Positions 1 to 24,882 are shown, counted from the whole stretch's first letter. The stretch: 49,662 nt of DNA, filler included, from Jimgerdemannia flammicorona (GCA_003990765.1; 2 parts of 2 records of this genome joined end to end with filler, not necessarily neighbours in it); one strand, 5' to 3'. Notes: generated from the letters alone by a model not told the origin. Numbers and translations: made by a program.

Positions 1-229
1 AAAAAAAAAGAGACAAGAAGGTGAGTTGAGGAGGTTATGGCAGAGTATGGAGAGGTGGTAGATATTGGATTCAGAGTCTGGGAGGGGACCTCACTCAGGA
101 CTGGGGATGTGAATGTGAGGATTTGGCTGACAGAGAAAGAAGCCACCAGGAAGGTGAGAGACTGGCCTTTGGAGATGGTCTGGGGGGCGATCTTGTGCAA
201 GGTAATGAGGGTGAAGGGGAGTGAGGAGG
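1..229 (+). mobile_element. 5' part (ORF1 region) of the LINE, split off by insertion of LTR element A
   Basis: Same purine-rich, CpG-depleted composition as 19983-24782. It ends in GGAGG (225-229), which is duplicated at 19983-19987, so the two pieces were contiguous before the insertion. Confidence 0.65.
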
Positions 230-1021
230 TGTAATAACTCTCACTTCTACCCCTCTCTTATTCTTAAGATAATTAGGGAAGTGGACTATTACTTAGGGAC
301 TTAGTACACAATGTGTACCAAGAAGCCTTCAGTTGAGGAAGCACTTGCTTAAAGTAGTTTGTAGCAGCAGTGTCTTCTATTTTAAAGGTCTTTCTCTTAT
401 GCCCTATTTCAAGAGTCTTGTTCTTTGATATGCACAGACTGAATTTGCCTTGGAATTCAGGTTCAATGGGTTTACTTAAGTCTTTGTGATTTGTATACCA
501 GTCTCAGTTCTGGCAGAAGTTAGCTAGGCTTCTGGAGTTTAGTCAGAAACACTAAAGTCACTTAGATGTCATTACTAAGACTCAGGGGAATGTGTGTGTG
601 TGGGGGGGACTTGATTCTTGTTATCAAGGACTGAACTAAAACTGCTTTATTTCGGATAGAAACTGGGGGGTATTTATATAAGTTGGTCTGTGATTTCTGA
701 CTAAGTATGATTGACTAATTTGGTAACTATAATGAGGTTTGTGATTGCAACCTTTGTCAGGTAGTTTTTGACAAAAAACAACTTTATGATCAGGACCTTA
801 ATTACTAGGCAATGATCAGCTGCTGTGGCAATAGTTGCTGCAGTGCCAATTGTTGGGGATAAGCTGAATATCATTTTCCACATCATTTTTGCATCATTCA
901 TTCATTCGTCATTCATTATTTATATGCCATGCTCAATTGTATGATGACATCATCACCACTGGGTCATGTGATTGCTCATCTCATCATGTCCCATCTGTTC
1001 ACACTTTTTCATTCTATTACA
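230..1021 (-). repeat. 3' LTR of element A (~790 bp)
   Basis: Direct repeat of 19202-19982 with TG...CA ends. On the minus strand it has TATAAATACCCC near 665-680 and AATAAA near 646-651. Confidence 0.95.
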
Positions 1022-1034
1022 TCCTTCCCCCCTT
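1022..1034 (-). promoter_or_regulatory. Polypurine tract of element A
   Basis: Minus strand AAGGGGGGAAGGA immediately precedes the 3' LTR. Confidence 0.9.
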
Positions 1035-1874
1035 AGAAATCAATGTCCTCATTGATTCGGAAATTGAGAACCAGGGGAGAAAAAGGTAGAGAATCCTCCT
1101 CAGGGTTGTTGCCATCTTCTTCAGTGGCAAGGGGGGTGGTTGCTGATGGCTTGCCATCCAGGATGGAGAAGTCAATGAGGTCTACAAATGGTTCTTGCAT
1201 TGGGATGGATGCTGGTGTAGGTGTTCTCCATCTGATGTGGTTGGGGCCATCCAAGTAGGGTTCTTATTCCTCATGCCTGGGAATATCCATTTGGATAGGC
1301 AGTCCTTTGAAGAGGTCAGATAGGTCTTGGAGCCATTGGTCAGAGTTATCATTCAGGAGGGGGCTCCAGTAGGGTTCACAGTCAGTAGACTGGAGGGTGA
1401 TCCAGAAGTTGGCTTCTTGGGCTACCTTGATCTCTAGTTTGTTAACCTTGAAAAAAGAGAGGTTCTGGAAGTCCTTCAGTTGGACATAGATGAGGTTGGG
1501 GATTGCAAAGGGTGTATGGTATATGATTGATGGACCTTCTTGGCAAGTCTTTGCTCATTCCTATCCAGGTGGGTCCAATCAGAGACTTGGTCCATGGACA
1601 GATCCTTCACCCATTGGAGGAGTTGATGACCAATCTCATATTCATGTCAGATCTCTAGGCAGCTGGTGACAAGATAGGCCCTTTTAATAAGTTCATGGCA
1701 GTTGAGGACATAATGTCCTAGGTCCTGGCTGGAGAGGTTAAGGGCCTCTGAGCAGTGGTTTCTTCCTTGGATAGCAACCTGGATGTGTCCAAAGAGGTGG
1801 TTAACCTGGCTTGGGAGGGGCCAGCTATGGTGGGCAGTTTGGCAGCAGGTAGCTTGGTTGTGGGTAGCAGGCAT
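1033..1874 (-). pseudogene. Degenerate accessory ORF (~280 codons) of element A between pol and the PPT
   Basis: ORF-track pieces 1647-1874 and 1033-1254 are joined by protein-like sequence with stops and at least one frameshift. It starts at ATG 1874 and stops at the PPT. Confidence 0.6.
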
Positions 1875-1936
1875 TCTTGTCTTATCTTTTCTGTGAGGAG
1901 AGGGGGATGAGGGTTGCAGAGTATTCTTGCCTTGGG

Positions 1937-1984
1937 TATTTATACTTATTCACTCATCTGGTGTGACCTTCCTTTGGTCACACC
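1937..1984 (-). promoter_or_regulatory. Putative internal promoter of element A: TATA box plus 9-bp palindrome
   Basis: Minus strand GTATAAATACCC (TATAAATA 1944-1937) is the same motif seen in the LTRs. A perfect inverted repeat GGTGTGACC-7nt-GGTCACACC lies at 1960-1984. The TATA is ~60 nt upstream of ATG 1874. Confidence 0.5.
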
Positions 1985-2336
1985 TTTTCAGCAAAATGTA
2001 TGATCTGTTGCTGTAAGTGGGACATGTGCTGGTTACCTGAGAAAATCCTGATTTCAAAGATATCATCACTTGTAGTTGTAGTTATACAGGGTTAACAGGT
2101 CTTGGTCCACTTTTTTTTTATCTAGTTGGTACATTTGCAAGGACTGGCCATTCTTGTCTAGGGTGAGGGCTCCCATTGTCACAGCTGGGGGTTCGAACCT
2201 CTTGGAAATAGACTTTTCTTATAATCTGAGGCAATTCCTAGTAACAATATCTGTCATGCAGATGGACTTAGACTGGTTTCGACACCATCAGCTTTCCTAA
2301 GTTCCATATGAAGTGTCCATCATCATCCAGCAGAGA

Positions 2337-4373
2337 TGTAAGAGGGTTGCTTTTTATGGTAACTGTTACGTAGTTCTGGAAGGGTTTTCTAGAAGTTCTG
2401 GATATTCTGGAAGACCGTTTTTTCTTATGGTCAAGATCAATTTCGTATGGAGTATATCCTCTATGCTTATTGATTTCAAGATTGAGTTGATGTCTCAACC
2501 AAAGTCCTTTTTTCAGACTAGTTCTGGATGTTCAGGATTTCCGTATTTCAGGAAGTTCAAGAAACTAAGACCAGCTTAGTTTAATTGGCTTATCGCTGCA
2601 GACAATACCCAATTAGGAAATTTCGTAAGGGAGTTAGAAGTAGTACCTAACAGGGAGTGGATTTACTTAAGAGTGGTTTGGGGGTTATTGAATAGGTTTA
2701 TTTGCTATTCATAATATTACTATATTAGGAGTAGTTGTGTGAAGGGATATTGTAGGGAAGTATTCAGGAATGTTCTTGTGTGTTCGAGTCTGAGATTCTG
2801 AGGTCTGGGGGAGGGGGTATTTATACTGGTGAGGGGCTATCTGGACTATGCTAAATATGGATATAGCACTAAGTGCCTTGCTGAGTCAGAATGCAGTCAC
2901 ATAGTACAAGTATGATCTGACATATCAAGAGATCATCTGACTGCTGAGTCAGTTCATAGTCACGTCATATAAAGCTAATCTAACTATACTATGACTGCTA
3001 GGATATTTATAGGTTTAGGTGCTGTCTGGATAGTCCTCGATAACATCACCATCAATTACATCATCTCTGATAAAGTAGTTATCTAGGAAGAGTGGTTTGC
3101 AGATTACTTCTCCTTGTTCACTGAGATAGTAATATATTGGGACTTCGTCTCTATCCCACAAGATAGCATCATCTGTCTCATAGGCTGGATAAGGTGTTGG
3201 TGGATGAAGGATGGGTGTATCATCTTCGCTTTTATTGGATTCACTGTCTGCATACCTTCTATAGGTTACAGCACTATGAGTTGCAGGATTGTAGTAAGCT
3301 GGCAGCTGTGGTTCATGTCGCTCATACTTAGGTAGTGGAGTGGTTGGTTTGATCTCAAGGGTTGTCTGGAGGTACAGGTTGTGTTCTCTGGTCTCTTCAT
3401 TGTAGTTGAAGTAATCAGGGATGAATGCTGGTTGGTATTCATGCCAGTGGTCATTGTCCTAATAAGTCTCGTATGTAGTTATGAACTGTTGTAAGTTCAT
3501 CGGCAAGGTTGGCGGTGTGATCAGGGTTGGCAGAGATTCTGGACTAGAGGTCATGTTGGCATCAGAGGGATCATTGTCTTCTGCTTCATCTTCATTGAAG
3601 TGGATTATATTGTAGATGTCTTTCATGGTATATCCAACTTGGGGCATTTGCAGGATTTGGTCATTGGGGTGTAGGAAGGTTCTGTCTGTGGTTTCGACGT
3701 ACTTGAGGTACTTGTGGTTGAGTTCTTGTATCATGTCATTGATTTGGCCATAGAACAGGGTAGCAACCATTTCGCTAGTAGTAACTCGGAGGCAGGGAAT
3801 AAAGGTACTATACTCATAGAAGAGTTCTCGATGTTTGCAGGTGATGAGCTTCTGGTGTTGAGACATCTGGGCAATGTCTGTGTCATGGTGGTATTCAACC
3901 ATGTCTTCCAGGAGGCAGCTGATCTAGTAGTAGCTTGAGATTTGTCTGATTCGATGGACCTTGCTAAGCATGTTCAGAGCATTCTATCAGGCTTCCATGA
4001 AGTAGAGGGGTGCTAGGCTATGGATATTCATGAGGGGCAGAGGGGGTGTGGCTTGGTTGATAATGGCATTCCAAATATCAGCGTGGATATGGTTGTAGAT
4101 CTCAGTGGTCATGTTTGTGTATTTGGAAGTTTGTAGTTGTTGTTGTTTGTTTTGGTTTTCTGTTTCGACGTGTCTTAGTACTTGGTATATATGCATTTGG
4201 TCCTGATTGGTAAGATTCCGTTTGTGTAGATCTTGTGTTCTGTGACTTCGGTTTGACTTAGCTTCATGATCAAGCAGGTGATTTCCAGATTTGTTCGGAG
4301 GTCATGTGAGATTTCAGTGGCCTGTTCAGAGGGTGATATGTAATTTCGGTGGCTTGGAGGTTGTGCACTTACA
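2337..4373 (-). repeat. 3' LTR of element B (~2.04 kb)
   Basis: Direct repeat of 10849-12908. On the minus strand it has GTATAAATACCCC near 2814-2826 and AATAAA near 2697-2702. Confidence 0.95.
3015..4112 (-). pseudogene. LTR (U3)-encoded ORF of element B, 3' LTR copy, ~365 codons (the frame is open to ATG 4196)
   Basis: ORF pieces 3987-4196 and 3459-3902 and the run down to TAA at 3015 are all in one frame. Each internal stop is a single transition away from a sense codon present in the other LTR copy. Confidence 0.75.
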
Positions 4374-4374
4374 A

Positions 4375-4387
4375 CTCTCCCCTTCTT
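4375..4387 (-). promoter_or_regulatory. Polypurine tract of element B
   Basis: Minus strand AAGAAGGGGAGAG, 1 nt before the 3' LTR. Confidence 0.88.
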
Positions 4388-7300
4388 AGCTTTCGACATC
4401 CTTGTCAGGGCCTTCTAATTTGTTCTAGTGTTGTTACACCATTTGGGAGGTCAAAAGTCTGGTAAGGTCCATATTTCTCAGAAAGTGGCATGCTTATAGT
4501 ATAGTTGTCTAACGTGTTGGATTCACATATTAAAGGGTCATGTGTTCAATGCCATGCACCGGAAGTGATTCTGATGTCATTTACTGCTGGAGAATTTCCT
4601 CTAAGGAATCTTCTTAAATGTCTACACCTTGTTTCCCACCAGTGGTACAGGGAGAATAGGCTTGCTTTCAGTTTTGCTATTTTTTCCAGGGGTTCGGTGT
4701 TCTTGTCTTGTTTTGCTGAGTTCTTGGTTTGGTTCACAATAATTATAATGTTCGAAAGGATAATATATAGTATATGGATAGGTATAGAGTATTTGGTTCT
4801 AGTTATTCAAGGAATCATATTCCTGAACTAGGTCAGTAGCATTCTGAAGATTGGTCTTGGGTTCACAGGTTGTATCATGGATTGGGTAACCTTTCCACTT
4901 GACAAGGTACTCGGGGTGGTTCTTGTTGCCATGTTTGTTGAGGATTTGTTCAACTTCATACTCTTCTTGGTCATTAATGATGACAGGTGCAGGTGGTTTG
5001 GTGGTCTGGTTTGGAAATAGCTCGTCATCATTGTCATTGTATTGCTTGAGACATTGAACATTAAAGACTGGGTGAATCTTAATGGTATCTGGTAGCACCA
5101 ATTTGTAAGAGGTTGGAGAAACTTGTGCAATGACTTCAAATGGTCCAATGAACTTGCTGTTCAACTTTGTCAATGGTCTATGCTTGAGGTTGTCAACTCG
5201 GTATCCTCTGATGTCTAGTAGAACCTTTTCTCCAATATCAAAGGTTTCTTCTCAGTGGTATTGATTAACATACTGTGACTGTTGTTCTTGCACTTGTGAT
5301 AAATTCTCAATGGCAATCTGGCTTAGATTGCACATTTGGAGTAAGAATTCTTCAACAGCTTTGACTGTGGAGGGTTCTTCAGTAGTTCGGATGAGTGTCA
5401 AAGGGGTGTTTGGGTTTTGTCCAGTGTTGGCAAAGAATGGGGTCATTCCAAGAGAGGCTTGCTTGCTATTGTTATAGGCAAACTCAACTGTGGTGAGGTG
5501 TTCATGCCAGTCATCTTGTCTATAGGAAATATAGTTCCTTAGCATTTGTTCCAGAGTTTGGTTCATTCTTTCAGTTTGGCCATCAGTTTCTGGGTGAAAG
5601 GCTGTGGATAGTGCAAGTTTTGTTCCAAGGTGTCCATGGAGGGCTTTCCAAAAGTGGCTGGTGAATTTCGGGCCTCAGTCACTAACAATGATCTTGGGAA
5701 GACCATGATAGTGGAAGATGTTGTCAAACAAGAGTGTGGCTATGTCTGGTGCTGTTGCAGTAGTGGTAGTAGGTACAAAGTGGGCTTGTTTGCTGAGATA
5801 GTCTACAAAGACAACAATTGCATCTTTCCTGTTCTTGGTTAGGGGTAGTTGTACAATGAAGTCTATAGAGATTTGTTCCCAATTTGCAGATGGTACTGGG
5901 ATAGGGTGTAGTAAGCCAGGTTTTGCTAGTGTTGAGAACTTGTTTCATTGGCAGGCATCATAGGAAGTGATGTAGGTTTTGAGCTGATCTGCCATACAGG
6001 GCCAATAGAAGTTTTGGGAGATAACTTTGTAACATTTATCAAATCCTAAATGTCCAGCTGTAGGGGCATCATGACATTCGAATAGGATAGTCCTTTGGAG
6101 GTCTCGGTTGTTTGGGACATACAGTCTGTCTTTGTAGTAGATAGCATTGTCCTTGAGTTGGTATTGATTGTACTGGTTATGTTTGTTAGCATCATCACTG
6201 TTCAGGATTTCATGGAGTGCTTGAGCTTCTTTATCATCAGCATATGCTGTGATAATTTGTTCCATGATGGAGTTTGTAACCAAGGTGAGAGTTTGGATAA
6301 TCTCTTCAATTGGTGGTCTGGAGATTGCATCGGCAATGATATTTTCCTTGCCAGGATAGTACTAGATTTTGTAGTCAAAGTTGGTGAGGACTTTCATCCA
6401 TCTGGCTTGCTTTTGAGAAAGAGTAGCCTGTGTCTTGATATTGACTAATGATTTGTGGTCAGTCAATATGGTAAAGTGTACTCCTTCTAGGTATGGTTGC
6501 CATTTGATCAGAGTGTCTACAATGGCTAGCATTTCCTTCTTGTGAGTTATGTAGTTGATTTCGGCATCATTGAACTTGCAGGAGTGATAGGCCACAGGGT
6601 GTCCTTCTTACATGAGCACTGCTCCAAGAGCTAGGTCAGAGGCATCAGTAGTAACTTCATATGGTAGGGCAGGGTTTGCCGCTTGAAGTACTGGTGTGGT
6701 TATCAGGGCATCTTTCAGTGCTTGAAAGGTAGTATCTTGTTCAGGTCTCCATGTTACAAGATTGTTGAAGTCTTTCTCTTGTTTCATGGTCCAGGGTTAT
6801 TCTTGTTTCTTGCTGTGCTTGGTCATTTGGGTGAGGGCAGTAGCAATTTTAGCAAAGTTGGCAACAAATCACCTGTAGTAGTTTGCTAATCTCAGGAATG
6901 ACTGGAGGTCCTTCAGCTTCTTGAGTCTGGGCCAATCCTTGATTGCAGAGATTTTGCTGGGGTCCACTTTGATTCCATTTGGAGTAACTATGTGTCCAAG
7001 GAATTGAATTTCTTTCAGGAGGAATTTGCACTTGCTGAGTGTTGCAAAGAGTTGGTTTTCTCAGAGTTTCAGTAATACTAGTTCAAGATGTTCAAGATGT
7101 TCTTCCAGGGTTTTACTGAAGACTAGGATGTCATCAATATAGATGACAACGAATTTGTCCAGGAATGGATGCAGAATGGTATTCATCAGTATCTGGAAGG
7201 TTGCTGGAGCATTAGTTAAGCCAAAGGGCATAACTAGGAACTCAAAGTGTCCATAGTGAGTTTGAAAGGCTGTCTTGTAGATGTCTTCTTCTTTCATGGC

Positions 7301-8455
7301 AATTTGCCAGTAACCATTTCACAGGTCAAAGGAGCTTATAAATTGTGGGTTGGTCAGCCTATCAAATATTTCATTGATCCTTGGTAGTGGGCAATAGTTC
7401 TTGATGGTCTGTTCATTGAGATCATGGTAGTCAATGCACATTTACAGGTCTCCTCCTTTCTTAACAACAAAGAGGACAGGTGCACCATAGGGTGATACAC
7501 TGGGTCTGATGAATCCTTGTTCTAGGAGTTCATCGATTTCCTTCTTGAGTGCATCAATTTCTCTCAGAGACATGTGGTAGATTGACTTGAAGGCTGGTTT
7601 GGCATCTGGGATAGTCTTGATAGCATGGTCTACTGCTTGTTTTGGGGGTAGGCCTTTCGGGAGCTTCTCTGGGAATATGTCCCGGAATTTCTGGAGTAGT
7701 GGTCTGACTTGGCTGTCAATTTTGGAGAAATCTTCTTCAGAGTTCTCGGGTTCTCCTTTGGATGGATGGATGGAGATAGCAAAGAGAGGGCATTTCTTGG
7801 CCAATTTCTTGAGTTGTAGCTTGTTGATGTGGGTGATCTTTGGTCCAGGGTCACTAGAGTTGAGTGGTCCTTTTTGCCTTACAGTTTGAAGTTGTGGTGT
7901 CCTTTCTTGATGGTCAAAGAATGGTTTACCCAATTGATCATAGGGTTCTCTTGTTTTAACCATGGAGTCTCAAGGATGATTTCATTGTCAGGAAGTGGTA
8001 CAATTTGAAGGGTAACATGTACTCAGTAGTCGCCAATTCGGAGGGGTAGGTTGTGGACTTCTTTGCTAATAACATGTGAGGTCCCATCAGCTGTAGCAAC
8101 TGCTTGAGTTTGCTGTACTGGAGAGGTAAAGACCTTGAGTCTGTTGGCTGTCTCTTTATTGATAAAGTTGCCTGAGGCACCACTGTCTATCATAATCTTG
8201 ACAGGTGCTCGATTGACAAAAGCCTTAAGTGTGAGTAGTTTGTCTGATCCAATGGTAGAGATTTCAGTTATAGGAGCTTTCCTTCTGTTGGTTATTCTTT
8301 GAGCCAGTTCATTGACACAAGAGAAGCAATCATCAATCATTCGGGAAGAGTACATTCCAATGCCATGGGGACATCGGCCACTTGGTACATATCCATCTTC
8401 AATCTTCTTGTAGAATTGTTCTTCTTTGTTCATGGTAGGTTGGGCTGGGGCCTTG

Positions 8456-8860
8456 TTGGATGAGCCAAATCCTTTAGATTCTCAGATGGTGGGCAGTAGT
8501 TCAGGGACTTCCTTAACTGTCAGGGTTGACTCAATTTTTTCAAATAGGATCTGGGTGATGCAGAAACCAATAGAGATCTTGAAGGGTGGTTTCAGATGAG
8601 AACAATAATTTCGCCTGTATAATCCTCATCAATGACTCCTCCTTCTACTGAGAGTCCTTTCAATGCTAGGCTGCTGTGACAGCATATTCTTTCAACATGT
8701 CCTTCAGGGATTTGGATACTAATTCCTGTGTAGACTTGTTTGACTTCTCGGTTGGAAACTGTAGCTTCTTCAGCTGCATACAGGTCATATCCAGCTGCTT
8801 TTGGACTTCCTTTGGTTGGGGCCTTAGTGGTTTATCTTAACTTGACAAAGTCCAGTATTC
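8456..8860 (-). pseudogene. dUTPase domain of element B
   Basis: Trimeric dUTPase motifs: PTKGSPKAAGYDLYA (I), HSSLA (II, degenerate), GGVIDEDYTGEI (III), CITQI (IV, degenerate), ESKGFGSS (V). Confidence 0.9.
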
Positions 8861-10833
8861 TGGTGGTCAGGTTGTTGAGGTGGTGCAGAGTGGTAACAGT
8901 TGCTCAGATTGCTGTTTGGGGTTTTTGGTTAGGGCAGGTACTGGCCATGTGTCCTGTCTTCTGGCAATAGAAGCATGCTCTGCTTCTTCGAAGTTCATTC
9001 CTTTTGCCTTCAGTGAGTTTCTTGAAGGTGCTCGGCTGGGTAGGTTCATGATTTCTGAGTGTCTAAGAGGTGGATGTGGAGGGAACTCGGGATGCTTCAT
9101 GCTTGGGTTCTTCTTTCTTGGTCCAAGTCTTTTTCTTGTTGTTAAATTGCCTTTGGGGCAGAATGGGTCCAGCTGTTAGGATTCACTTGACCATGGTCTT
9201 GATTCTTGCTAGGCACCATTGTTGGTGATCACAACCAACTGGGTGGCCTTATTCTCAGATTTTTCTAGTAAGCCATTCAGGCAGTGCATCGAATAAGTGG
9301 TCTGCTCTTGTACCATTTCGTGCTTCATTGTTGGTGATATATCCTAGGCCAACAGTGTTCAGGAGTGATTCGAGTTTTGTACAGAAGGTTTCGAATTCTC
9401 CTTTGCCATGTACATCAAATTTGAGGTTGTGGAGTTTTACTCAAGATTCTGCAATCATGGTTTCGCTGCGGTATTGAGCAATCATCCATATCCTGGGGCA
9501 TTATTTGCTGCATTCTGAGCAACTACTGCAGGTCAGGTATCCCATATGAGGGGTTTTTCAGGAAGGGTTCACCACCATTCTTCGGCAGGTCCTCAGAAGA
9601 ATGTAACAACTTGGCGGACATAGGCTATAGTGGTAGCAAAGAGTTGTTCCAGAGTGTGATCTTGATTGTTTGTCAGAATGCAGTCAGCAACTTGCTCATT
9701 GGTCCATTGATTGGCTTTGAAGTTGGTGTCAACTACATTAATGAAGCTTTGGACTTCCTGTGCAGTACCATTGAAGGTAGGTAGGCTCAGATTTTTGGTA
9801 GGTCAGATCTGTTCAGCTAATGCAGTAATGGTTGCTGCCATTATAGCTACTTGAGCTGTGAGGTCTAGAATCTGTTGGTTCACTATGTTGTTTACTGGAG
9901 GCAGTTGGACTGCTGGTGGTGGTGTTACTGATACTACTTGAGGTACTGGTGCAGAATGTGATGGAGTTCTTTGGGTCTGTGTAAGTTGCTGGAGTAGTAG
10001 TTGTGGATCTGGAGTAAGGGCTTAATAGATAACTGTTTGTTTCTGTGTAGGTGTATTCTGTCCTGATGGAGGTGTGTCTCCTTCAGTGGTGTATCTGGGA
10101 TCGAATTCAGTGAGATACTCCTCCTCCTCTTTGGTTTGGTCCCCATGTAATTGGGTTTGCTTGGCGTCGAAGTAGACAGAATCAGTTGTATATCTGATTT
10201 CAGATAGACTTAATTCAAAGTCAAGTTCAGGTTCAGTGTTAGTTGCAGATTCAGGTAGGGCTGTAGCAGGGCCTGCTTCAGGTTCGGGGTCAGGTAGTTG
10301 ATGAAGGGTTTCTCTTGCTTCTTCTTTAAGAATATGGCAGACCTTGCTGTTCTGGAATCGATAGTATAATGCGGTCTTGGTCCTGGTACAGTGAAAGTCG
10401 GTTGAGTTGAGCCACTTGGCTACAGAGGCTTGGGCTTCATGAGGAACTAAGGCTAGAAAGACTGCTGCTGGTTGTCCTAGGTCGCTCAGATTTATAGAGC
10501 TGACAAAACTCTTATTGAGAAGAGTAAAGAAGGCTTCAATAAGACCTTCTTCGTCTTGACTTGCTGGGTGTAGTGCAAGGAGTTTGGTGAATAAGGTTTT
10601 GCCTATTTGCTGATTTAACTGGAGTATTTCTTTCTTTAAATGAAGTTTGTCCCACTTGTTACAGGTGTGGAGGTCAAATTGTCCTTGTACATCAGGTTCA
10701 ATTCTCTCCAGATTGTCAGATGGTTCAGGATAAATTCCAGTTTAGAGGTTGGGCTTTATACCAACTTGTAGGAATTCACAGAGGGGTTTGTAGTGGGGTG
10801 AGGAAGCATCTTGAAGCAGAATTGGATTGTAAA

Positions 10834-10845
10834 CCACTGCTACCA
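10834..10845 (-). promoter_or_regulatory. Primer-binding site of element B (initiator tRNA-Met-like)
   Basis: Minus strand TGGTAGCAGTGG, 3 nt after the 5' LTR and identical to the PBS of A. It is complementary to a tRNA 3' end ...CUGCUACCA; the tRNA identity is inferred. Confidence 0.8.
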
Positions 10846-10848
10846 AGT

Positions 10849-12908
10849 TGTAAGAGGGTTGCTTTTTATAGTAACCATTATATAGTTCTGGAAGGGTTTT
10901 CTGGAAGTTCTGGATATTCTGGAAGACCATTTTTTCTTATGGTCAAGATCAATTTCATATGGAGTACATCCTCTACACTTATTGATTTCAAGATCGGGTT
11001 GACGTCTCAACCAAAGTCCTTTTTTTGGACTAGTTCTGGATGTTCAGGATTTCCATATTTCAGGAAGTTCAAGAAACTAAGACCAGCTTAGTTTAATTGG
11101 TGTATCGCTGCAGACAATACCTAATTAGGAAATTTCGTAAAGGAGTTAGGAGTAGGACCTAACAGGGAGCGGATTTACTTAAGAGTGGTTTGGGGGTTAT
11201 TGAATAGATTTATTTGCTATTTATGATATTGCTATACTAGGAGTAGTTGTGTGAAGGGATATTGTGGGGAAGTATTCAGGAATGTTCTTGTATGTTTGAG
11301 TCTGAGATTCTGAGGTCTGGGGGAGGGGGTATTTATACTGGTGAGGGGCTATCTGGACTATACTAAATATGGATGTAGCACTAAGTGCCTTGCTGAGTCG
11401 GAATGCAGTCACATAGTACAAGTGTGATCTGACATATCAAGAGATCGTCTGACTGCTGAGTCAGTTCACAGTTATGTCAAATAAAGCTAATCTAACTATA
11501 CTATGACTGCTAGGCTATTTATAGGTTTAGGTGCTGTCTGGGTAGTCCTTGATGACATCACTATCAATTGCATCATCTCTGATAAAGTAGTCATCTAGGA
11601 AGAGTGGTTCACGGATTACTTCTCCTTGTTCACTGAGATAGTAATATATTGGGACTTCATCTCCATCTCACAAGATAGCATTGTCTGTCTTGTAGGCTGG
11701 ATAAGGTGTTGGTGGACAAAGGATGGGTGTATCATCTTCGCTTTCATTGGATTCACTGTCTGCATACCTTTTATAGGTTACAGCACTATGAGTTGCAGGA
11801 TTATAGTAAGCTGGCAGCTGTGGTTCATGTTGCTCATACTCAGGTGGTGGAGTGGTTGGTTCAATCTCGAGGGTTGTCTGGAGGTACAGGTTGTGTTCTC
11901 CGGTCTCTTTATTGTAGTTGAAGTAATTGGGAGTGAATACTGATTGGTATTCATGCCAGTGGTCATTGTCCCAATAAGTCTCATATATAGTTATGAACTG
12001 TTGTAAGTTCATTGGCAAGGTTGGCGGTGTGATCAGGGTTGGCAGAGATTCTGGACTAGAGGTTATGTCGGCGTCAGAGGGATCATTGTCTTCTGCTTCA
12101 TCTTCATCGAAGTGAATTATATCATAGATGTCTTTCATGGCATATCCAACTTGGGGCATTTGCAGGAATTGGTCATTAGGGTGTGGGAAGGTTCTGTCTG
12201 TGGTTTCGATGTACTCAAGGTACTTGTGGTTGAGTTCTTGTATCATGTCATCGATTTGGCCATAGGACAGAGTAGCGACCATTTCGCTGATAGTAACTCA
12301 GAGGCAGGGAATAAAGGTACTGTACTTGTAGAAGAGTTCTTGATGTTTGTGAGTGATGAGCTTCTGGTGTTGAGACATCTGGATAATGTCTGTGTCATGG
12401 TGGTGTTCAACTATGTCTTTCAGGAGGTGGCTGATCTGGTAGTAGCTTGAGATTTGTCTGATTTGATGGGCCTTGCTAAGCATGTTCAGAGCATTCCATT
12501 GGGCTTCCATGAAGTAGAGGGGTGCTAGGCTATGGATATTCATGAGGGGCAGAGGGGGTGTGGCTCGGTTGACAATGGCATTCCAAATATCAGCGTGGAT
12601 ATGGTTGTAGGGTCATGTTTGTGTGTTTGGAAGTTTGTAGTTGTTGTTGTTTGTTTTGGTTTTCTATTTCGATGTGTCTCGGTGCTCAGTATATATGCAT
12701 TTGGTCCTAATTGGTAAGATTCTGTTTGTGTAGATCTTGTATTCCGTGACTTTGTATTGACTCAGCTTTGTGCACTGTGACTTCGGTTTGACTCAGCTTC
12801 ATGATCAGGCAGGTGATTTCCAGATTTGTTCAGAGGTCATGTGAGATTTCAGTGGCTTGTTCAGAGGGTGATGTGTAATTTCGGTGGCTTGGAGGTTGTG
12901 TGCTTACA
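10849..12908 (-). repeat. 5' LTR of element B (~2.06 kb), containing the second copy of the U3 ORF (~11527-12616)
   Basis: Direct repeat of 2337-4373. ORF-track pieces 11668-12282 and 12298-12543 match the 3' LTR ORF. Confidence 0.95.
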
Positions 12909-15900
12909 AGAGATGACACAGATGGTGTGAAATGGAGTTGTTCAAATGCATTTTGCTATAATATGTTAGACTCTCCTTTACTTGGGCCTCTTCTTGTTGG
13001 TTATCCATAGTGTTTCTTTTTTACTGCAATGTTTGGTATTATATGTTTCCAGATAAAATATGTAGTCTTCTTTTGTTTATTATATATTCTGAAATCTCAG
13101 AGTTGCAAGTCCTTCCTTTGCTGGGGAGTAAGTGTTTCCATGTAGTTCTGGAGGGCTTCATATGCATTCTTCAGAGCTTCTTCTTTTTCCCAAGTGGCAT
13201 CATAGGTGGGGTAACCCTTCCACTTGATCAGAAAAAACTGCTTGACTGTTTTGGGATATTTGTAGATCTTGTGGTCAAGTACTTCCTCAATTTTGAATTC
13301 CTTGTGATCATTGATCCTAATTGGGGGTGGTGGTGGAACTATATGCTCAGAGAATGGGTTCTCATGGTAGTCCACCAATTGGCTGATATGGAATACTGGG
13401 TGTACTCAGATATTGTGAGGGAGTTGCAACTTATAGTTGACTTCGCTGATCTTTTCCACAATCTTGTATGGTCCAATTCTTCTAGTATAGAGTTTTTTAG
13501 CTAGTTATTGTGCTAGGGTATTCAGGTGGAGGTGATCTGTTCTAAGCATGACCATGTCACCAATATTGTAGGAGACTTCTCTTTGCTTCAGGTTTGCATA
13601 CTTGATCTGGTAGTCTTGTATTTCTATGAGAGTATCTCTTGTCATTCGGATAAGATTGGAAATGATCTTAGCCAAATCTTGGGCTGCTGGGACTGCTGAT
13701 TTTGTGGTAGTACTTGGGGTCCTTGGGTGTTAACCATGGTTCAGGAAGAATGGAGTCTTCTTCATAGAGGTTTGCTGACTATTGTTGTAGGTAAACTTGG
13801 CATGGGCTAGGTACTTGTCCCAATCATTTTGCTTGTAACAGCAGAAGATACTAAGCATCTGTTAGAGAGTTCTGTTGATTCACTCAGTTTGACTGTCAGT
13901 TTGAGGGTGGTAGGCAGTAGAGAACTTCAGCTTGGTTCCATGGAGGGAAAAGAATGCCTTCCAGAAGTTGCTTATGAACTTGGTATCTTGGTCAGATACA
14001 ATGGTGCTAGGTATGCCATGTAGTCTGAATACTTGATTGAGAAAAATCTCAGCAATCTCTGGTGCTGTAGTGGTGGTCTTGGTGGGTACAAAATGGACTT
14101 GTTTACTTAGGTGGTCCACAAATACCACGATGGCATCCTATCCTGCCTTGGTCTTGGAGAGTTGGACAATGAAGTCTATTGCAATCTGATCCCAGTTGTG
14201 ACTCGGGAATGGTAGTGATTGCAGAAGTCCTGCTGGTAGCTTGTTACCACTTTTGAACCTTTGGCACATCTCACAAGAGGCCACAAAGTCTTTGATATCC
14301 TTGGTCATCTTTGGCCAGTAGAACTCTCTTGAGAGGAGGTTGTAGGTCTTTTCGAAACCAAAGTGTCCTACTGTAGGAGTATCATGGAGTTCCTACATGA
14401 TCTTGAGTTGCAGAGTATTATTATTGGGTACAACCACTCTGTAATGGTCCCTGTAGATAAGTCCATCATGATAAGTGAATCTCTTGGCCATTTGCCTCAT
14501 GGGTTCTGGGACCTCGGCCTCTGGGTCTTGGCAGAATTGAAGGAAATTCATCAGGGGGCTATCTTGCTAGTAGCCTTCCTTGATCATCTGGGTGAGGTCT
14601 TCAATTACTTCAACCATAAAGACAAGTTCATCTTCCATGTATCTGGAGAAACCATCAGCCACACAGTTGGTTTTGCCTGGGATATACTTGATTTCCATAT
14701 CAAAGTTAGCAATGATTTCCATCCAGTGGGCTTGTCTGTGGGTCAGCATAGGCTGTGTGTGAATATACCACAGTGTATGGTGATCAGTATAGGCTACAAA
14801 TGGCTGTCCTAGGAGGAAGTGGCACCATTTCTGGAGTGCAGTGACAATAGCCAGAAGTTCCTTCTTATGGGTGATATATCGGGTCTCAGCTGGCTTGAGC
14901 TTTTGGGAAAGGTAGGCCACCGGGCAGTCTTCTTGGCTGAGTACTGCTCCAATAGCAATATCAGAGGCATCCATGGTCAGAGTTAATGGCCTGGTAGGGT
15001 CAGGTGCAATTAGCACTGGGGCCTCAATAAGGAGTCTCTTGAGATAGTCCATAGCCAGGGTGCATTCAGGGGTCTATTCAGTTTTGATGTTTACTCCTTT
15101 GCAGGCCAGGCTGGTCAGTGGGGCTGCAATAGCAGAGTATTCTTGGATAAACCTTCGGTAATAACCAGTAATACCCAGAAAGTACTGGAGTAGCTTGAGG
15201 GTTGTAGGGATAGGAATATCCTTGGGGGCTGATACCTTTTGGAGGTCCACATTGATACCTTCAGCAGAGATGATGTGTCCTAGATATTCAATCTGGTCTT
15301 GATAGAACTTGCTTTTGCTCATCTTGGCATAGAGCTGGTGTTCTCACAGAAGGGTCAGTACTTGTCTGAGGTGGGTGTAGTATAGCTCTACTCTCTCACT
15401 GTAGATTAGTATATCATCAATATACACAAGGGCACAGATGTTGAGAAGTGGTCCAAAGATGTTATTTATCAGATATTGGAATGTTGCTGGTACATTGGTC
15501 AATCCAAAAGGCATGACTCAGAACTAGTAGTGTCCAAACTGTGTTTGGAAAGCTGTCTTCTCAATGTCCTTCTCATCAATAAGAATCTGGTGGTAGCTAT
15601 TTTGCAAGTCTAGTAGGGAAAAGATCTTGGCCTTGAAGATTTGGTGTAGCAACTCATCAATCCTAGGCAAGGTATACCAGTTCTTGATGGTGACTTGTTG
15701 AGGACTCTGTAGTCAATACACATTCGCAGAGAGCCATCCTTCTTCTTAACAAATAGAATAGGGGCTCCAAATAGAGGGCAGCTGGGTTCAATGTATCCTT
15801 GGGCCAGTAGTTTGGTCAATTCATCTTTGAGGGTCTTGAGCTCAGGTTGGGCCAATTGATAGATACTTTTGTATGGGGGTTCAGATCCCAGAATAAGATC

Positions 15901-16814
15901 AATTCCATGTTGGATTTGGCACTTGGGTGGAAGTTCTTGGGGGTCTTGGAATATATCTTAAAATTCTTCAAACAGTTCTTAAGCTTCTGTTGGAATTGGG
16001 CTACTTGTAGCTTCAGTGACTTCTTGTACTATACAGATGAAGTAGGTGTTTCTCTTTTTTTGAGAGAGTCTCTTCATTTGAATGGCAGAGATGATTTCAA
16101 TTCTCTGGTGGTTGGTACCTTCCTGGGGTGTCAGAGTAATCTTTTGGCCTTCATGGGTCAGGTTAACCTTGTTGGTTCTCCAGTTGATGTCTGGGTTGTG
16201 CTGGGTCAACCAGGCTTTTTCTAGGATGATGTCTTGTCCTGGGAGGTCTACAATACTGAAGTCTAACTTCTCTTGATATTTGCCAATCTTGAGCAAAAGA
16301 TCTTTACAGATCTTGGTCAATGGTGCAGTTTTACTATCACCAAAGGTAATACTTCTTTTCTTGGTGGCTGGCCTGCTTTGGGCTCCAATCCTCTTAGCAG
16401 TCTTGGTGCTGATATAGTTTCCAGTAGCACTGCTATTAAGCAAGACATTGACATTCTGTCTGTGGACTTGGCCTGTAAACTTGATACAACTGTCCTCTTT
16501 CTTGATGGTATTGAGCTCTTCATCTTTATTATTGTCCCAATTGCTGTCAGTCTCCTTGAAGTCAGTTTCTCCCCATCCTTTACAAGGAGGGTTGTCTTGT
16601 TGGGGTTCCTCAGTCTGTTGGACTTGGCACTTCTCAGATTGAATTTTGAAAACTTTGGAGAGACATGCATGGCATTCACCAATATGTTCCATGCAGTACA
16701 TTCGAATAGAATGAGGGCATCATCCACATGGTGCATAACTATCTGCAATTCTCTTATACCAGTTTTCATCATCTTCCTTCATAGTAGTGACCTTTTGACT
16801 GAGAGGTTTGTTGG

Positions 16815-17200
16815 TTGATCCAAACCCTTTCTTGCTACGGTCTATCTGGGAGAGCTCGGGGACTTCTTCAATGGTGAGATCTTGACAGATTTCTTCAACA
16901 ATTGCTTGGACAATCCTTTGGTCTGTTTTGACTTCAAATGATGTGTCTCCAAAATTTCGCAAGATAATGTGGATTTCACCAGTAAATCCTTGATCAACTA
17001 CTCCTCCTCCTAGCCCAATGTTGAACTCTTTGACTAGGCTGCTTCACTCAGCAAGGCAGATGTATGTACCTTTGAGAGCTTGTATTGCAATTTCTGTTCA
17101 CACTATAGCATTGGTACTTGGTAGAATGGTGAGGTCTTGGCTGCTGTAGAGGTTATATCCAGTATCGGTTGGGTGGGCCTTAGTGGGAATGGTAATCTTA
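16815..17200 (-). pseudogene. dUTPase domain of element A
   Basis: PTKAHPTDTGYNLYS (I), E*SSL (II), GGGVVDQGFTGEI (III), QRIVQ (IV), DRSKKGFGST (V). Confidence 0.88.
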
Positions 17201-19186
17201 TATCATATCTTCTGTACTTTGATGACATTCTCAGGGTTCTTCTTTCCTGGGCCTTCTCCAATAACAGTAATGTTCTGATTACTGGGTTTGCCTGATCTGT
17301 TTCCCTTCTCAGGGAATTTGACTGAGATATGTCCTGCCTTTTTACAGATGAAGCACAATTCCTTTTCACAAAGCTGCTTCTTTTCATCCTCAATGGAAGG
17401 TCTGGGTCCTCTGGGGTTTCGCTGGTTCCTTTGATCATTCCTTTGATCATATCTTTGGTTATTCCTTTGATCATATCTTTGGTCATTCCTTTGATTATTT
17501 CTCCAGATAGGATTTCTCCTATCTTGGTTATCCTTCTTATATTCTTGATTTCATGGGGCTTGTGCAGCAAGAATTTCATGGGCTCTTCTTTGTACTTAGG
17601 CAAAGTACCATGAATAGTGGGGACATCCTTGGGGAAGACCTTGTTCCTTGATCTTCTGGGTAAGCCAGTCTGGTAGAGCTGCAAAAAGATGGTTGGCTCT
17701 GGTACCATTGATGGCCAAATTGTTCTCCTAGTAGGTAAGTTCAACAGTTTTGAGATAGGCATCCATTCTGGTGGCAAAGGTCTCTAGATCCTCTTTGCCA
17801 TTCTTGTGGAACTTCATCTGGGATAGTTTGTTCGAAGTTTCTTATATATAGGCCACATTTCAGAATTTGGTCAGTAGTAAGGCCTTAAGTCCTGGGCCTG
17901 CTTCATAGTCATCCCAACCTGGTCTATTGTTGGCAGGTGCTTGTCTATTGACTTGAGGGCAGGCTTCCCAAGTTACTGGGTGTTGTTCCAAGGTTTGCCA
18001 GAATTCGGCTACTGTTCCTGTAAAGAATGTGGCTACTGTTTCTACTTGTGCTGCTGATGTGGCAAACAGCTATTGAAGGGTACTGTTCTGGTTGTTGGTG
18101 AGCATTCCTATAGGCACTCGGTTGTCATTCCATTGGTTTGCTTGGTAGCCTGTATCAACTGCATTGATGAAGTTTTTGATGTTGCTATTTTTTCTACTGA
18201 ATGTTGGAATTCGCAAGGTCTTGATTGGTTTGTTTTGCTCAGTAATCTGTCCTACTATCTCTGCTAGTACTGCTAGCTGGGTAGTCAGTGCTACAATGTT
18301 GGTATCTACCATTATGTTGACTATTGGTGGTGGTCCTATTGGGGTAGATTCTTCTGAAGATTGTTCTGCTTGGTGGAGTTGTAGTACTGTATGACTTGGG
18401 GTTACTTGATTCCTGGATATCAAGTCAAAGAGTCCTATAAGAGAGGGTAAACTGAATCTCTGTATAGGTGGCTGGGTTGGTTCTGGGGTCTGATCTTCTT
18501 GACCTGTGATTTCTTGATAAATTCCTAGACCTGCTATTCCTCATTGGCTATCATCAGACTGGTAACCTGTAGAGTCTTTGTCTGACTCCCTTCCCTGATG
18601 AGATAGTGTGTCCTCATACTAACTAGGTCCTTCAAAAAGGATATCTGTCTCTGGCTGGATGGATGGGCCTGCTCCTTGTTCAGTAGTAGGGGATGGTTGG
18701 CCTGCTTGCTCATTCTTGTACCTGGTAATGGCAGAGGTGTAGTATACAACTAGCCTGTAGTAGATGGAGGTCTTGGTAGGGGTATGATGATATCTGTCAG
18801 AGGCAATCCACTCAGCAGCTGCTTCTCTTGCAGCAGGAGATGTGATATAATCTAGAAAATCCTGGGTGACTACAGCAGTAGATTCTGGGGTCCTAGTGAT
18901 TCCAATGTGTTCTTGGAGGAGTTCATAGAACCTACGGCAGCTAACAATGTTCCTAAGTCCTGGGTGGTATATCCTAAAGGCCTGGTATAGATTCTTGTAA
19001 GCCTGGTCAATTATAAGCTAGTGGGTCCTTGGGTCTGTAGTTTCCTGATACCACCTGGTCCTAATGGCAAGGGCTTCTCTGGCTCTGGTTTGAGGATCCA
19101 CAGTTGATTCTGGGGGTTACTCCTGTTCAAGGTTGGTCTTGTTCCAAATTCAGGAGTGTGTTCTTGATACCTTCTTGGCTGGTAAT

Positions 19187-19198
19187 CCACTGCTACCA
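19187..19198 (-). promoter_or_regulatory. Primer-binding site of element A (initiator tRNA-Met-like)
   Basis: Minus strand TGGTAGCAGTGG, 3 nt after the 5' LTR. Confidence 0.8.
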
Positions 19199-19201
19199 AG
19201 T

Positions 19202-19982
19202 TGTAATAACTCTCACTTCTACCCCTCTCTTATCCTTAGGATAATTAGGGAAGTAGACTATTACTTAGGGACTTAGTACACAATGTGTACCAAGAAGCCT
19301 TCAGTTGAGGAAGTGCTCACTTAAAGTAGTTTGTAGCGGCAGTGCCTTCTATTTCAAAGGTCTTTCTCTTGTACCCTATTTCAAGAGTCTTGTTCTTTGC
19401 TGTATACAGACTGAATTCGCCTTGGAATTTAGGTTCAATGGGTTTACTTAAGTCTTTGTGATTTGTATACTGGTCTCAGTTCTGGCAGAAGTTAGCTAGG
19501 CTTCTGGAGTTTAGTCAGAAACACTAGAGTCACTTAGATATCATTACTAAGACTCAGGGGAATGTGTATGTGTGGAGGGGACTTGATTCTTATTATCAAG
19601 GACTGAACTAAAACTGCTTTATTTTGGATGGAAACTGGGGGGTATTTATACAAGTTGGTCTGCAATTTCTGACTAAGTATGAGGTAACTATAATGAGGTT
19701 TGTGATCGCAATCTTTGTCAGGTGGTTTTTAGCAAAAAACAACTTTGTGATCAGGACCTCAATTACTAGGCAATGATCAGCTGCTGTGGCAACAGTTGCT
19801 GCAGTGCTGATTGTTGGGGATAAGCTGGATATCGTTTTCTGCGTCATTTTGGCATCGTTCGTTCATTTGTCATTTGTTATTCATATGCCGCACTTGATCA
19901 TATGATGACATCATCACCGCCGGATCACGTGATCACTCATCTCGTTACATCCCATCTGTTCGTGCTCTTTCGTTCTATTACA
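19202..19982 (-). repeat. 5' LTR of element A (~780 bp)
   Basis: Direct repeat of 230-1021, followed by the TSD GGAGG. Confidence 0.95.
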
Positions 19983-22900
19983 GGAGGAGGAAGAGGACTT
20001 GTTGGAAGCACTGGAAGAGTTGAGTGGTGCTGTGGAGCAGCAGGCGAAGGCTTGGAAGGCCTTTGAAGGGGTGACACACTTGGAGGTGGTGGATGGGAGG
20101 TGGGTTCAAGTGAACAAGGAGCAGTGGGAATGAGATCAGGGACATAAGAGATAGAAGGAACTGCTGGCAAAGATAGCAGGCAGATCTCCAAAGGATATGA
20201 GCAGAATGGTGGATGCAGGGGGTACCAAAGTGAGTGTCTGGGCAGGTGAGGGCAGTGGGAGTGCTGGGAAGGGGACCAGCGAGAACAGGGAGATGACTGG
20301 CAATGATCCATATGCTGATTGTATGTTTGAGGTATGGGAGGAGGTATGGGAGGATTCCCCTACCCCTACTCTCCTTATCAGGTGAGGCCCAGCTTCCTGA
20401 AGCAGGGTGGTGGAGGATGTGCCAATGTGGGGGGCCCAGCGAGTGCAATTTGGAGTTCCAGAGGTAGCAAAAGGGGGACAAGTAGTGGTGGCTGGTGAGG
20501 AGGAACTGGTAGACATCCCAGAGGAGTGAGATGAGGCTGCAAGTGCTGGGGCTGATACCACAATACTGGATGGTGGGAGGCTGGTGACTCTGGGAGGAAA
20601 GGAGGTGGGGAGCCTACTTTGGATATGCAGGATGATGAACAACCTAGTAGCCAAGGAGCTGAGAGGGTGAATCTCAGGGTAATGAGTGACAAGTATTAAA
20701 TGTGGATCCTGCAGGGGGATGAGATGGTGATGGCATTGAAGGTGGAAATTCTTGCAGTATATCTGGAGGAGGAAGGCTATGAGGTAGATAAGGAGCGAGA
20801 GGCAGAGCTAGTGGGAGTCACTGGAGAGAGGGCAGAATACTGCTAGACCAAGTATCATAGATTGCAGCTCTGGCAGAAAGCCTGTCTGGAGTACTGAGAG
20901 GAATTCAAGGAGAAGGCAGATGGAGAGATGAATGAGCTGTTGGCTGGATTGAAGGCTCAGAGGGCTGAAGAGGAGGTAGTGACTGTGGAATATAATCTGG
21001 ACTTGATACAGGAGGAGATGAATATAGAGCAGTAGAAAAGAGCTTGACAATACACTATTCTTTATTATGAATAGTATAACCAATGAATGTAAATGGGTTA
21101 CAGGATACTTATCAATGTAAGAACATTTTTACTTAGCTGAAGGAATTGGAGGTTAATCTCTTTCTCTTGCAGGATGTCAGGTGTGAGGATGATTTGGATG
21201 GACTGAAATGGATGAAGGAATGGAGAGGTGAGGCAGTTTGGAAGGGCAAGGTTGGGATTCTGGTATGGAAAGGCAGAGGGGAGATAAGGGATATGCAGGG
21301 CTGGGGGGATAGATTGGTCTGGGGTGAGTGGATATGCACAGGTTGAGAGCCAGTAATAGTGGGCTCCTACTACTGCTCTGCAGTATAGGGTGAGCATATG
21401 GATTGGGTAAAGGGCCTACAGGAGAGTAGGATTCTTATAGAGGTTGGGGTAGATATGCTCAGTGGGGACTTCAATATGGTCTGAGATGTATTGATGGATA
21501 GAACTGATAGAAGATGGGGAGCTGAGGGTTGGAGTGGAGGACTGGTAGTATGGGTGAAAGTGGAAAGACTGAGTGCTCTGGTAAATGTGGATAGAGAGTG
21601 TTGGGGGGATAGGAGGATGTACACACACTGGGCAGGGGGCCTGGGGATGAGAATTGATTGGATTCTGACAGCCAGCTGCTGGAGCTTGGATGTTTGGAAG
21701 TCACTGGAGGTGGAATGGTATCCATGGTCAGATTATTGGGGGCTTTTAGGGCAGGGGCATTTTAGAGAGAGTGGGGATGGGCCTGGACATTGGCATCTCA
21801 ATTCTACCTTATTAGATGATAAGATCCAGTGGAATGAGTGGGCTGCAGACATTCAACTAAGAGTGGAGTACTGGAGGCAGGAAGGTGCCCCAGTTGGTAT
21901 TCGGTAGATGAGGATGAAGGAGATGGCCAGGACCTACTGGAGTGAGGCTGGCAAGGAGGCTGGGAAACAGAGGAGGTGGCAGGTGAGATGGACTTCTAGT
22001 AGATTGTCTAGACTCTTGGAGGACTGGGTGAGACTGATGACATTGGAGGGGGAGGAGGATTGGAGATTGATAAGGGTGAAAATAGAGGTCGATGAACTAC
22101 AACAGGTGTTGCAGAATGAGGAAGAGGCAAGGGTACAGGGTTTAGTGGTGTGGCTTCATTGGCAGGGGTTGAAGGAAGGGGAGAGACTCTCAAAGTATCT
22201 CACAAGAGCCCTTCAGGTGAGAAGAGTGCAACAAAGGTAAGAGGGAGTAGTTAATGCTGATGGTATATTGGTGCACAGTGTACAAGACATTCTTGGATCG
22301 CTAAAGGAGCATTGGAGTGAATTGTAGAGTGAGGAGGAGGGTGGGGCAGATGCCGAAGCCATTGACTGAGCATTGGAGAATTGGCACCCTACATGAGTAG
22401 ATGGGCTGGGTGACTTGGTGCTGCCAGTACAAGAGGAGGAGATCCACCAGGTTCTTGCCATAACAATGCTGGGTATGGTGCCTGGGGAGGATGGTCTGCC
22501 CTGGGACTTCTGGAAGAAGATGGTAGGAGTTCCAGGAGTACTGGGTGAGATGATGGCACTGTGTGATTGGATTCTACAAATGGAGAGATGGGTGGGGGAA
22601 CAGGATCTGGGGCTGGTGACATTGCTTTATAAGAACAAAGGAAGGTGAGAGGACTGGAAGAACTGAAGGGTGTTTATGCTACTGGATATGGACAGAAAGT
22701 TGGTTACCAAGGTAGTGGTTGTGAGGCTGCAAAAGGTGGCCCAGAAAGTCCTGGGTATTGAGCAGAGGAGCTTTGTAAGAGACTGGCTCATTAGAGATGG
22801 CACAGCCTGGATTCATGGAGTTATTGAAGGGGCATGAGCCAGTGGACTGGATGGGCAACTGGTCTTTCTGGACCAGGAGAAAGCTTATGACTGGGTGCAG

Positions 22901-24782: not shown

Positions 24783-24882
24783 NNNNNNNNNNNNNNNNNN
24801 NNNNNNNNNNNNNNNNNNNNNNNNNNTTAATTAATTAANNNNNNNNNNNNNNNNNNNNNNNNNNNNNNNNNNNNNNNNNNNN
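24783..24882. other. Artificial contig-joining spacer (44 N + TTAATTAATTAA + 44 N)
   Basis: Symmetric N runs around a linker with stops in all six frames. The flanking contigs have nearly equal lengths (24782 and 24780), as expected for length-sorted concatenation. Confidence 0.93.

Follow-up and report, generated by a model that had tools for sequence, protein, structure and literature searches.

A protein-coding frame lying wholly within the LTRs of a chromovirus in Jimgerdemannia flammicorona

Retrotransposon LTRs are commonly regarded as modules that supply a promoter and a terminator but no coding sequence, and they are masked by annotation pipelines. MMTV sag is the 'LTR ORF' in the U3 of a betaretrovirus, a complete gene upstream of the LTR promoter, and its product, the Sag protein of this vertebrate retrovirus, is made from spliced mRNAs and is a membrane glycoprotein of type II. 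In complex retroviruses, accessory genes at the 3' end (nef, bel/bet and the tax-type genes) also reach into U3, but these genes only overlap it and start in unique sequence. Among plant elements, excerpts of two reports describe extra ORFs, namely ORF0 of rice Retrosat2, RIRE3 and RIRE8 and the 5'aORF of sunflower Tekay, which are conserved within a family and diverge fast between families (PMC3485330; PMC11728184). Fungal chromoviruses with an 'add. ORF' of unknown function, some of them with a dUTPase, appear in the excerpted part of Novikova et al. 2010 (PMC2864245), where dUTPase-bearing chromoviruses are listed for the fungi Postia, Phanerochaete and Tuber. The term 'LTR ORF' as used in PMC12037069 refers to the polyprotein ORFs of LTR elements, and the variable U3 of crapaud is under 200 bp and non-coding according to an excerpt of PMC10787394. 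A full-text literature search for non-retroviral LTR retrotransposons with a protein ORF inside their LTR found no paper, while a figure in PMC2864245 might bear on the question of novelty.

Here we describe such a frame in a window from Jimgerdemannia flammicorona, by which we mean the whole stretch of 49,662 nucleotides (filler included) that was analysed. The window contains a minus-strand chromovirus, a Ty3/Gypsy element with a chromodomain (element B), nested in an older chromovirus (element A; Table 1). The domains identified with Pfam in the interior of element B follow the order RVP_2, RVT_1 (5.5e-31), RT_RNaseH, Integrase_H2C2, rve, SH3_Tf2-1 and Chromo (1.5e-12), and this set, running through to the chromodomain, identifies the element as a chromovirus. 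A dUTPase domain is located upstream of the PR, and env is absent. The two LTRs, which have the termini TGTAAG...CTTACA, are 91.2% identical over 2073 columns (self-BLAST and alignment). Element A has the same PBS as element B and also a dUTPase, and the pols of the two elements are 42% identical. The observed/expected ratio of CpG is 0.10–0.20 in the first 25 kb of the window, which hold the retroelement nest, and 0.88–1.11 across 25–49.6 kb. A neighbouring ornithine-cyclodeaminase gene is interrupted by a ~55-nt gap that resembles a short intron; this gap and the dUTPases of the two elements point to a fungal host. An ESM Atlas search with an exon of the ornithine-cyclodeaminase gene gave bacterial clusters only.

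Table 1 Positions of the LTR frame, LTR signals and element landmarks, counted from the first letter of the window.
Feature	Position	Strand	Remarks
3' LTR of element B	2337..4373	-	TG...CA ends; self-BLAST, LTR alignment, end sequences
5' LTR of element B	10849..12908	-	self-BLAST, alignment, end sequences
TSD TCTCT, 5 bp	2332..2336 and 12909-12913	.	flanks element B
PBS TGGTAGCAGTGG	10834..10845	-	3 nt past the 5' LTR of element B
PPT AAGAAGGGGAGAG	4375..4387	-	directly precedes the 3' LTR of element B
Element B gag, dUTPase, protease, RT, RNase H, integrase, SH3, chromodomain	4802..10741	-	decayed; Pfam
RT-to-chromodomain (pol) frame	7702..4802	-	10 stops in 967 codons
LTR frame, copy 1	4112..3015	-	365 sense codons and stop
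Internal stops of copy 1 (four)	3989-3984 (two adjacent), 3926-3924, 3461-3459	-	
Alternative in-frame ATG, copy 1	4196	-	
LTR frame, copy 2	12612..11527	-	stops 12300-12298, 11670-11668
TATATAC, candidate promoter of the LTR gene	4185..4191	-	identical in both LTRs; alignment
Two tandem ~31-nt modules, TGASTCA each	12745..12795	-	5' edge of the 5' LTR
Two TATAAATA boxes of the LTR promoter zone	3011-3004, 2825-2818	-	canonical, directly after the frame stop
TGASTCA sites between the TATAAATA boxes	2945-2951, 2882-2888	-	
AATAAA	2697..2702	-	downstream of both TATAAATA boxes; read from the alignment
Element A LTRs	227-1021 and 19199-19982		self-BLAST

The frame under study opens 262 nt into the LTR, and 681 nt separate its end from that of the LTR. 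A preliminary description of this DNA had reported the same long frame in both LTRs, with stops at differing positions, and we recovered both observations: the six sense stops over the two LTRs (four in copy 1 and two in copy 2) include none that is common to both, and the three codon examples quoted there (TGA-TAG versus CAA-TGG among them) are present in the LTR alignment. The length it gave, 365 aa, also stands, but it counts from the ATG at 4112, and the start assigned to it, 4196, is an upstream ATG. The intact ancestral ORF proposed there agrees with the lack of a common stop, but copy 2 also has a frame-shifting 8-nt deletion that had been missed, located just 3' of an ATG at 12616-12614, which it throws out of frame. 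The stops and the deletion are each private to one LTR. When P0001 and P0003, two protein relatives introduced below, were used as tblastn queries on the window, matches were found in LTR copies 1 and 2 only.

Other copies of the element were sampled by placing contigs (of DNA or unspecified kind) from four public runs on the window at a likeness of at least 80%, which gave 8184, 968, 997 and 828 contigs; in each of the four runs both LTR and interior were covered. Public soil-metagenome runs and runs of an organism coded A thus contain an abundant and diverse family. The nine sequencing runs listed as containing this sequence included no RNA run. Contigs in X1, X3 and X5 bridge the LTR-PBS junction (joints 10845>2337). 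The frame belongs to element B, as is seen from its TSD, PBS, PPT and TG..CA ends and from the LTR-interior junctions in other copies. Position 3460, within a copy 1 stop, is the sole stop of the frame among the 40 rows of the contig table that were listed, and there a letter other than that of the window was found in 33, 3, 18 and 6 contigs of the four runs (all contigs of three runs and nearly all of the fourth, among the rows listed). Since other copies carry the other letter, that stop is private to copy 1.

Stop content and codon usage were then compared with random expectation and with the pol of the same element. In the LTR frame, 5 of 366 codons are stops, versus an average of 23.3 +/- 4.4 (sd) in 2000 dinucleotide shuffles (minimum of 9), and the counts for the remaining two sense frames are 15 and 37. 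Because pol was certainly coding when the element moved, it provides an internal control for stop density: the two LTR frames, with 4/365 and 2/361, compare with 10/967 (1.0%) in pol, versus 50–71/966 in the pol off-frames, with an off-frame stop density of 5–10%. Base composition at codon positions 1, 2 and 3 of the LTR frame nearly equals that of pol. A codon-usage log-odds score, for which element B pol was the training set, reached +0.20 and +0.22 per codon in frame versus -0.27 to -0.30 off frame, while a score of +0.03 or less was obtained for the rest of the LTR. The in-register antisense frame scored +0.19 and +0.18, about the same as the sense frame, so that the strand assignment rests on stops and protein relatives. 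A gene on the antisense strand was rejected as four antisense stops are common to both LTRs, meaning that the antisense frame was already closed at insertion. We conclude that this is a genuine protein-coding frame located wholly inside a chromovirus LTR.

After insertion, the two copies decayed. The LTR pair differs by 137 transitions versus 6 transversions, together with indels of 31 nt and 8 nt. The simple CpG-type transitions invoked in the preliminary description are thus right as to transitions, but an ancestral CpG is compatible with just 70 of the 137, the remainder being mostly CpA/TpA or TpG/TpA; the decay pattern is RIP-like or that of 5mC deamination, and not pure CpG decay. Differences between LTR1 and LTR2 amount to 82/1080 (7.6%) within the frame and 61/953 (6.4%) elsewhere. 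Between copy 1 and copy 2 they are distributed over codon positions 1, 2 and 3 as 34, 21 and 27, and 53 codons differ non-synonymously versus 21 synonymously. Both LTR frames have therefore drifted neutrally since insertion, which is expected at this stage and lends no support to selection. Both frames in this window are pseudogenes, decayed by C>T/G>A hypermutation like the pol of element B.

Evidence from before the insertion comes from relatives of the protein. A profile search against 1.84 billion representatives of ~15 billion proteins returned two relatives only, P0001 and P0003, with none of the plant ORF0/5'aORF proteins among the matches; both are fragments of the LTR frame itself and originate from short metagenome contigs (998 and 1180 nt). 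Protein searches restricted by length gave 1 match among 230 candidates of near lengths and 1 among 11 of shorter lengths. P0003 (128 aa) begins at the Met of ATG 4112 and spans the N-terminal third. Single C>T/G>A steps in the window codon account for 20 of its 24 residue differences from copy 1 and for 20 of its 23 from copy 2, and the stops within its span (four in copy 1 and one in copy 2) are all among such steps. As its differences mostly reflect C>T/G>A decay of the window copies, P0003 represents the same subfamily in a little-decayed form. P0001 (247 aa) aligns with residues 115–365 at 66% identity (165/250; 209/250 positives), two 2-residue gaps, zero stops in 247 codons and the same end point. 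Only 23 of its 81 differences are compatible with decay of the window copy, and P0001 thus represents a truly diverged subfamily.

To place P0001 against a neutral background, simulations were run down to its identity (400 runs x three transition biases). The simulated frames contained 2.8–4.8 stops and were stop-free in 0.5–3% of runs, and the fraction of positives was 0.75–0.77 (maximum of 0.82) versus 0.836 observed for P0001. These comparisons suggest purifying selection at the protein level between subfamilies, as judged from a single diverged relative that owes its detection to its open frame, which introduces an ascertainment bias. The evidence set consists of four sequences, two of which are the non-independent LTRs of one insertion; none of the four is an intact full-length copy, and the P0001 lineage is known from its C-terminal part. 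Searches for the DNA of the relatives gave 198 and 248 pattern matches in metagenome_contigs (alignments A1 and A2), 130 in genome_contigs and 106 in viral_contigs, with 0 confirmed. The gene was intact when this copy of element B inserted: the depletion of stops, the absence of shared stops and the relatives together lead to this conclusion, and they also indicate that the frame was kept open between subfamilies.

The encoded protein has no described family among the resources searched. Pfam returned a single row for the frame, RAMP (E = 0.02; 15.4 bits versus a cut-off of 27), which we treated as noise under the cut-off and rejected as the family of the LTR protein, and it returned no family for P0001, P0002 or P0003. 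The best match in a PDB sequence search with the LTR protein had E = 0.22, and the ESM Atlas contains P0001 itself as a poor model (pLDDT 0.39) with no usable neighbour. AlphaFold2 modelled the whole protein with a mean pLDDT of 31 and the N-terminal 128 residues with a pLDDT of 53.5 and a pTM of 0.44. The preliminary description had seen an N-terminal half that looked helical and a tail rich in Pro, Tyr and acidic residues, and as a prediction this agrees with the five helices of the N-terminal model and with the 187-residue tail of P0001, which has a pI of 4.05, 37 Asp+Glu versus 7 Lys+Arg, 20 Pro, 18 Tyr and zero Cys. The AlphaFold and Foldseek comparison it had suggested for fold identity gave no fold match: in Foldseek against PDB with the N-terminal model, the best hits were generic helical bundles (best E 0.93) and none reached E <= 0.001. 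Neither the sequence searches nor this fold search linked the protein to Sag, Nef or another described accessory protein. The product is an orphan of ~365 aa with an N-terminal half (~140 aa) that is helical in the model, and its tail (~190 aa) is acidic, Pro/Tyr-rich and probably disordered. The protein contains no hydrophobic segment (maximum 19-residue Kyte-Doolittle mean of 0.97), basic cluster or zinc knuckle. Late-domain, NLS-like and zinc-knuckle motifs were considered and rejected, since none is conserved across the relatives; PPEY and LPAY motifs occur in copy 2 only. With an orphan protein that lacks a fold match, its role becomes a directly testable question, and it could serve in activation, in counter-silencing directed at RIP or methylation, or in particle assembly.

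The signals around the frame define its place within the LTR. The frame had been described as lying upstream of the LTR TATA and AATAAA, and this was confirmed: its stop is followed after 3 nt by the first of the TATAAATA boxes, with the AATAAA downstream of them, and by this layout the frame would lie in U3. A second set of signals precedes the frame. The TATATAC is located 75–80 nt 5' of ATG 4112, overlaps ATG 4196 and is followed by an A/C-rich (CAA-like) leader. The 3' LTR has one ~31-nt module, with a decayed TGASTCA, and other copies have a variable module number, with loose contig ends at 4233 and 4264. TGASTCA, which we take to be an AP-1/Gcn4-like site, has 10 matches window-wide versus 9.6 expected (no enrichment), and 5 of the 10 fall in element B LTRs, which is a post-hoc observation. 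Together, the upstream TATATA and the modules suggest a second promoter, which would make each LTR a self-contained gene.

These upstream signals can also be read in another way, in which genomic RNA would start at the TATATA (4191-4185) and the same gene would lie in R instead of U3, as the first ORF of the genomic RNA and a counterpart of the plant ORF0/5'aORF shifted into the repeat. We regard this placement as unlikely. The identity of the TATATA in both LTRs and the TGASTCA modules before it, which are like those of the downstream promoter, are consistent with it, as are the conserved orphan 5' ORFs of ~400 aa, with helices and disordered Pro-rich stretches, that excerpts of PMC11728184 and PMC3485330 describe for plant chromoviruses. 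However, two perfect TATAAATA boxes followed by an AATAAA are the usual U3-R layout, and R would measure ~1.45 kb with the poly(A) signal 1.5 kb from the cap, so that most transcripts would end in the 5' LTR.

If the gene is placed in U3, it may still be asked whether the element profits from it. The frame could be a passenger, a host mRNA captured into U3 by template switching and of no benefit to the element. Capture of genes by LTR elements is a known phenomenon, and the frame is compact and intronless and has its own ATG in good context within a regulatory region. Nevertheless, we consider a passenger quite improbable because no host homologue was found in the 1.84 billion representatives (~15 billion proteins), Pfam or PDB, its codon-position composition equals that of element B pol, and a frame that is open and conservatively substituted at 66% identity is unlike a useless passenger. 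The preliminary description had raised a host gene fragment captured recently in this one copy; there is no host paralogue in the 1.84 billion representatives, and P0001 and P0003 exist as relatives. Homology of the frame to a part of element A was also considered and rejected, with just a 14-nt match shared by the LTRs of elements A and B; in element A, every frame of the 3' untranslated region contains 14–28 stops per 500 codons. That the frame is not a gene at all, being open by chance in a T-/G-poor strand (its A/C-rich sense strand does lower the stop frequency) or conserved as DNA or RNA only, is extremely improbable given shuffles that average 23 stops and never fall under 9, the 15 and 37 stops of the other sense frames, protein-level conservation above the neutral expectation and an LTR that scores as non-coding outside the frame.

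Our preferred reading, which we hold to be probable, is that of an element-borne accessory gene which a fungal-type chromovirus carries entirely within its LTR. As both LTRs are rebuilt from a single template during reverse transcription, the gene would be duplicated at each transposition. It is possible, and we propose this tentatively, that the LTR gene is self-contained, with the TATATA and TGASTCA modules as promoter and the LTR AATAAA as 3' end; either LTR, or a solo LTR, could then express a 1.4-kb mRNA. A wider proposal, in which each LTR is a complete gene (TATA, AP-1-like enhancer modules, 365-codon ORF and poly(A) signal) that encodes a family transactivator or silencing antagonist, is more doubtful. 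Under this proposal two copies would spread per insertion and an expressible copy would persist in every solo LTR, which would amount to a retrovirus-like 'complex' regulatory layer in an env-less fungal retrotransposon. As for the protein itself, its acidic, aromatic tail might allow it to work in trans as an adaptor or activator for the element, a specific role that we rate as rather improbable, with a silencing antagonist or an assembly cofactor as alternatives.

A selected gene inside an LTR would have consequences for how these repeats are interpreted. Solo LTRs could be coding genes, and dating by LTR divergence would include codon constraints during the activity of the element. Fungal chromoviruses would gain a layer of accessory genes for which the only known precedents so far are the U3 genes of complex retroviruses and the genes that plant chromoviruses carry outside the LTR.

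Compared with described systems, element B resembles the 'add. ORF' elements of PMC2864245 in being of the fungal chromodomain type and in having a dUTPase, a likeness drawn from a legend that gives no place for the ORF. With the plant ORF0/5'aORF elements, as far as the excerpts of PMC3485330 and PMC11728184 describe them, it shares a chromodomain Ty3/Gypsy element with long LTRs and an orphan protein of ~400 aa that has no known domain, few helices and long disordered Pro-rich regions. It is unlike them in position, since these excerpts place the plant ORFs between the 5' LTR/PBS and gag, whereas the frame in element B lies inside the LTR, with the PBS after it. The frame is also unlike the nef, bel/bet and tax-type genes, as its start is already 262 nt within the LTR and its stop precedes the TATA boxes. 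MMTV Sag differs in its protein and its element, given that the LTR protein has no hydrophobic segment and no similarity to it and that element B has no env. In arrangement, the frame is like MMTV sag: it is a complete protein gene within the LTR and, being inside the LTR, is present in both LTRs of the provirus.

The outer, older chromovirus (element A) encloses a second minus-strand chromovirus (element B), whose insertion point is the 3' untranslated part of element A. The primer-binding sites of the two are identical, and their pol regions share only 42% identity. Both nested elements have the order gag, dUTPase, protease. Each LTR of element B carries a frame of about 365 codons; the 0.8-kb LTR of element A contains no long frame of any kind.

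On the minus strand at 4421-4917, between the end of the element B chromodomain and its polypurine tract, contigs of other family copies (from public sequencing runs, aligned at at least 80% likeness) skip 218, 287 or 470 nt. The skips reflect variation among copies in how long the 3' untranslated region is; none of them is a GT..AG intron.

The sequence that holds the decayed reverse transcriptase is strongly enriched in G, with GC skew reaching 0.49. Chromovirus domains are absent from this plus-strand remnant, which is probably derived from a non-LTR retroelement.

Features in the nested elements and the remaining window
Feature	Position	Strand	Details
Element A, outer chromovirus	227-19982	-	LTRs 227-1021 and 19199-19982
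dUTPase domain, element B	8571-8825	-	Pfam E = 7.9e-20
dUTPase domain, element A	16723-17043	-	Pfam E = 3e-13; ahead of the element A protease
Decayed reverse transcriptase	22655-23364	+	RVT_1 match with E about 1e-8, divided between two frames
Internally repetitive stretch	31749-33396		Self-matches 75-79% identity, offset about 160-1000 nt
Tandem array, units about 1.46 kb	36540-42966		4-5 copies, 76-91% identity
Ornithine cyclodeaminase/mu-crystallin family gene	44468-45674	-	Two open pieces, about 55 nt between

CpG observed/expected ratios are 0.10-0.20 in the retroelement nest (1-25 kb) versus 0.88-1.11 in the remaining window, changing sharply at about 25000, the position where the window's two records are joined. 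The decay, by hypermutation or methylation, is restricted to repeats. Two runs of 44 N each (24783-24826 and 24839-24882) stand at the edge of the nest, at the coordinates of the inter-record filler.

In the part with the higher CpG ratios, the tandem array contains an inverted piece (38294-38818 versus 41747-41213), and TATATA microsatellites adjoin the internally repetitive stretch. The gap in the ornithine cyclodeaminase/mu-crystallin gene looks like a short intron of the fungal type.
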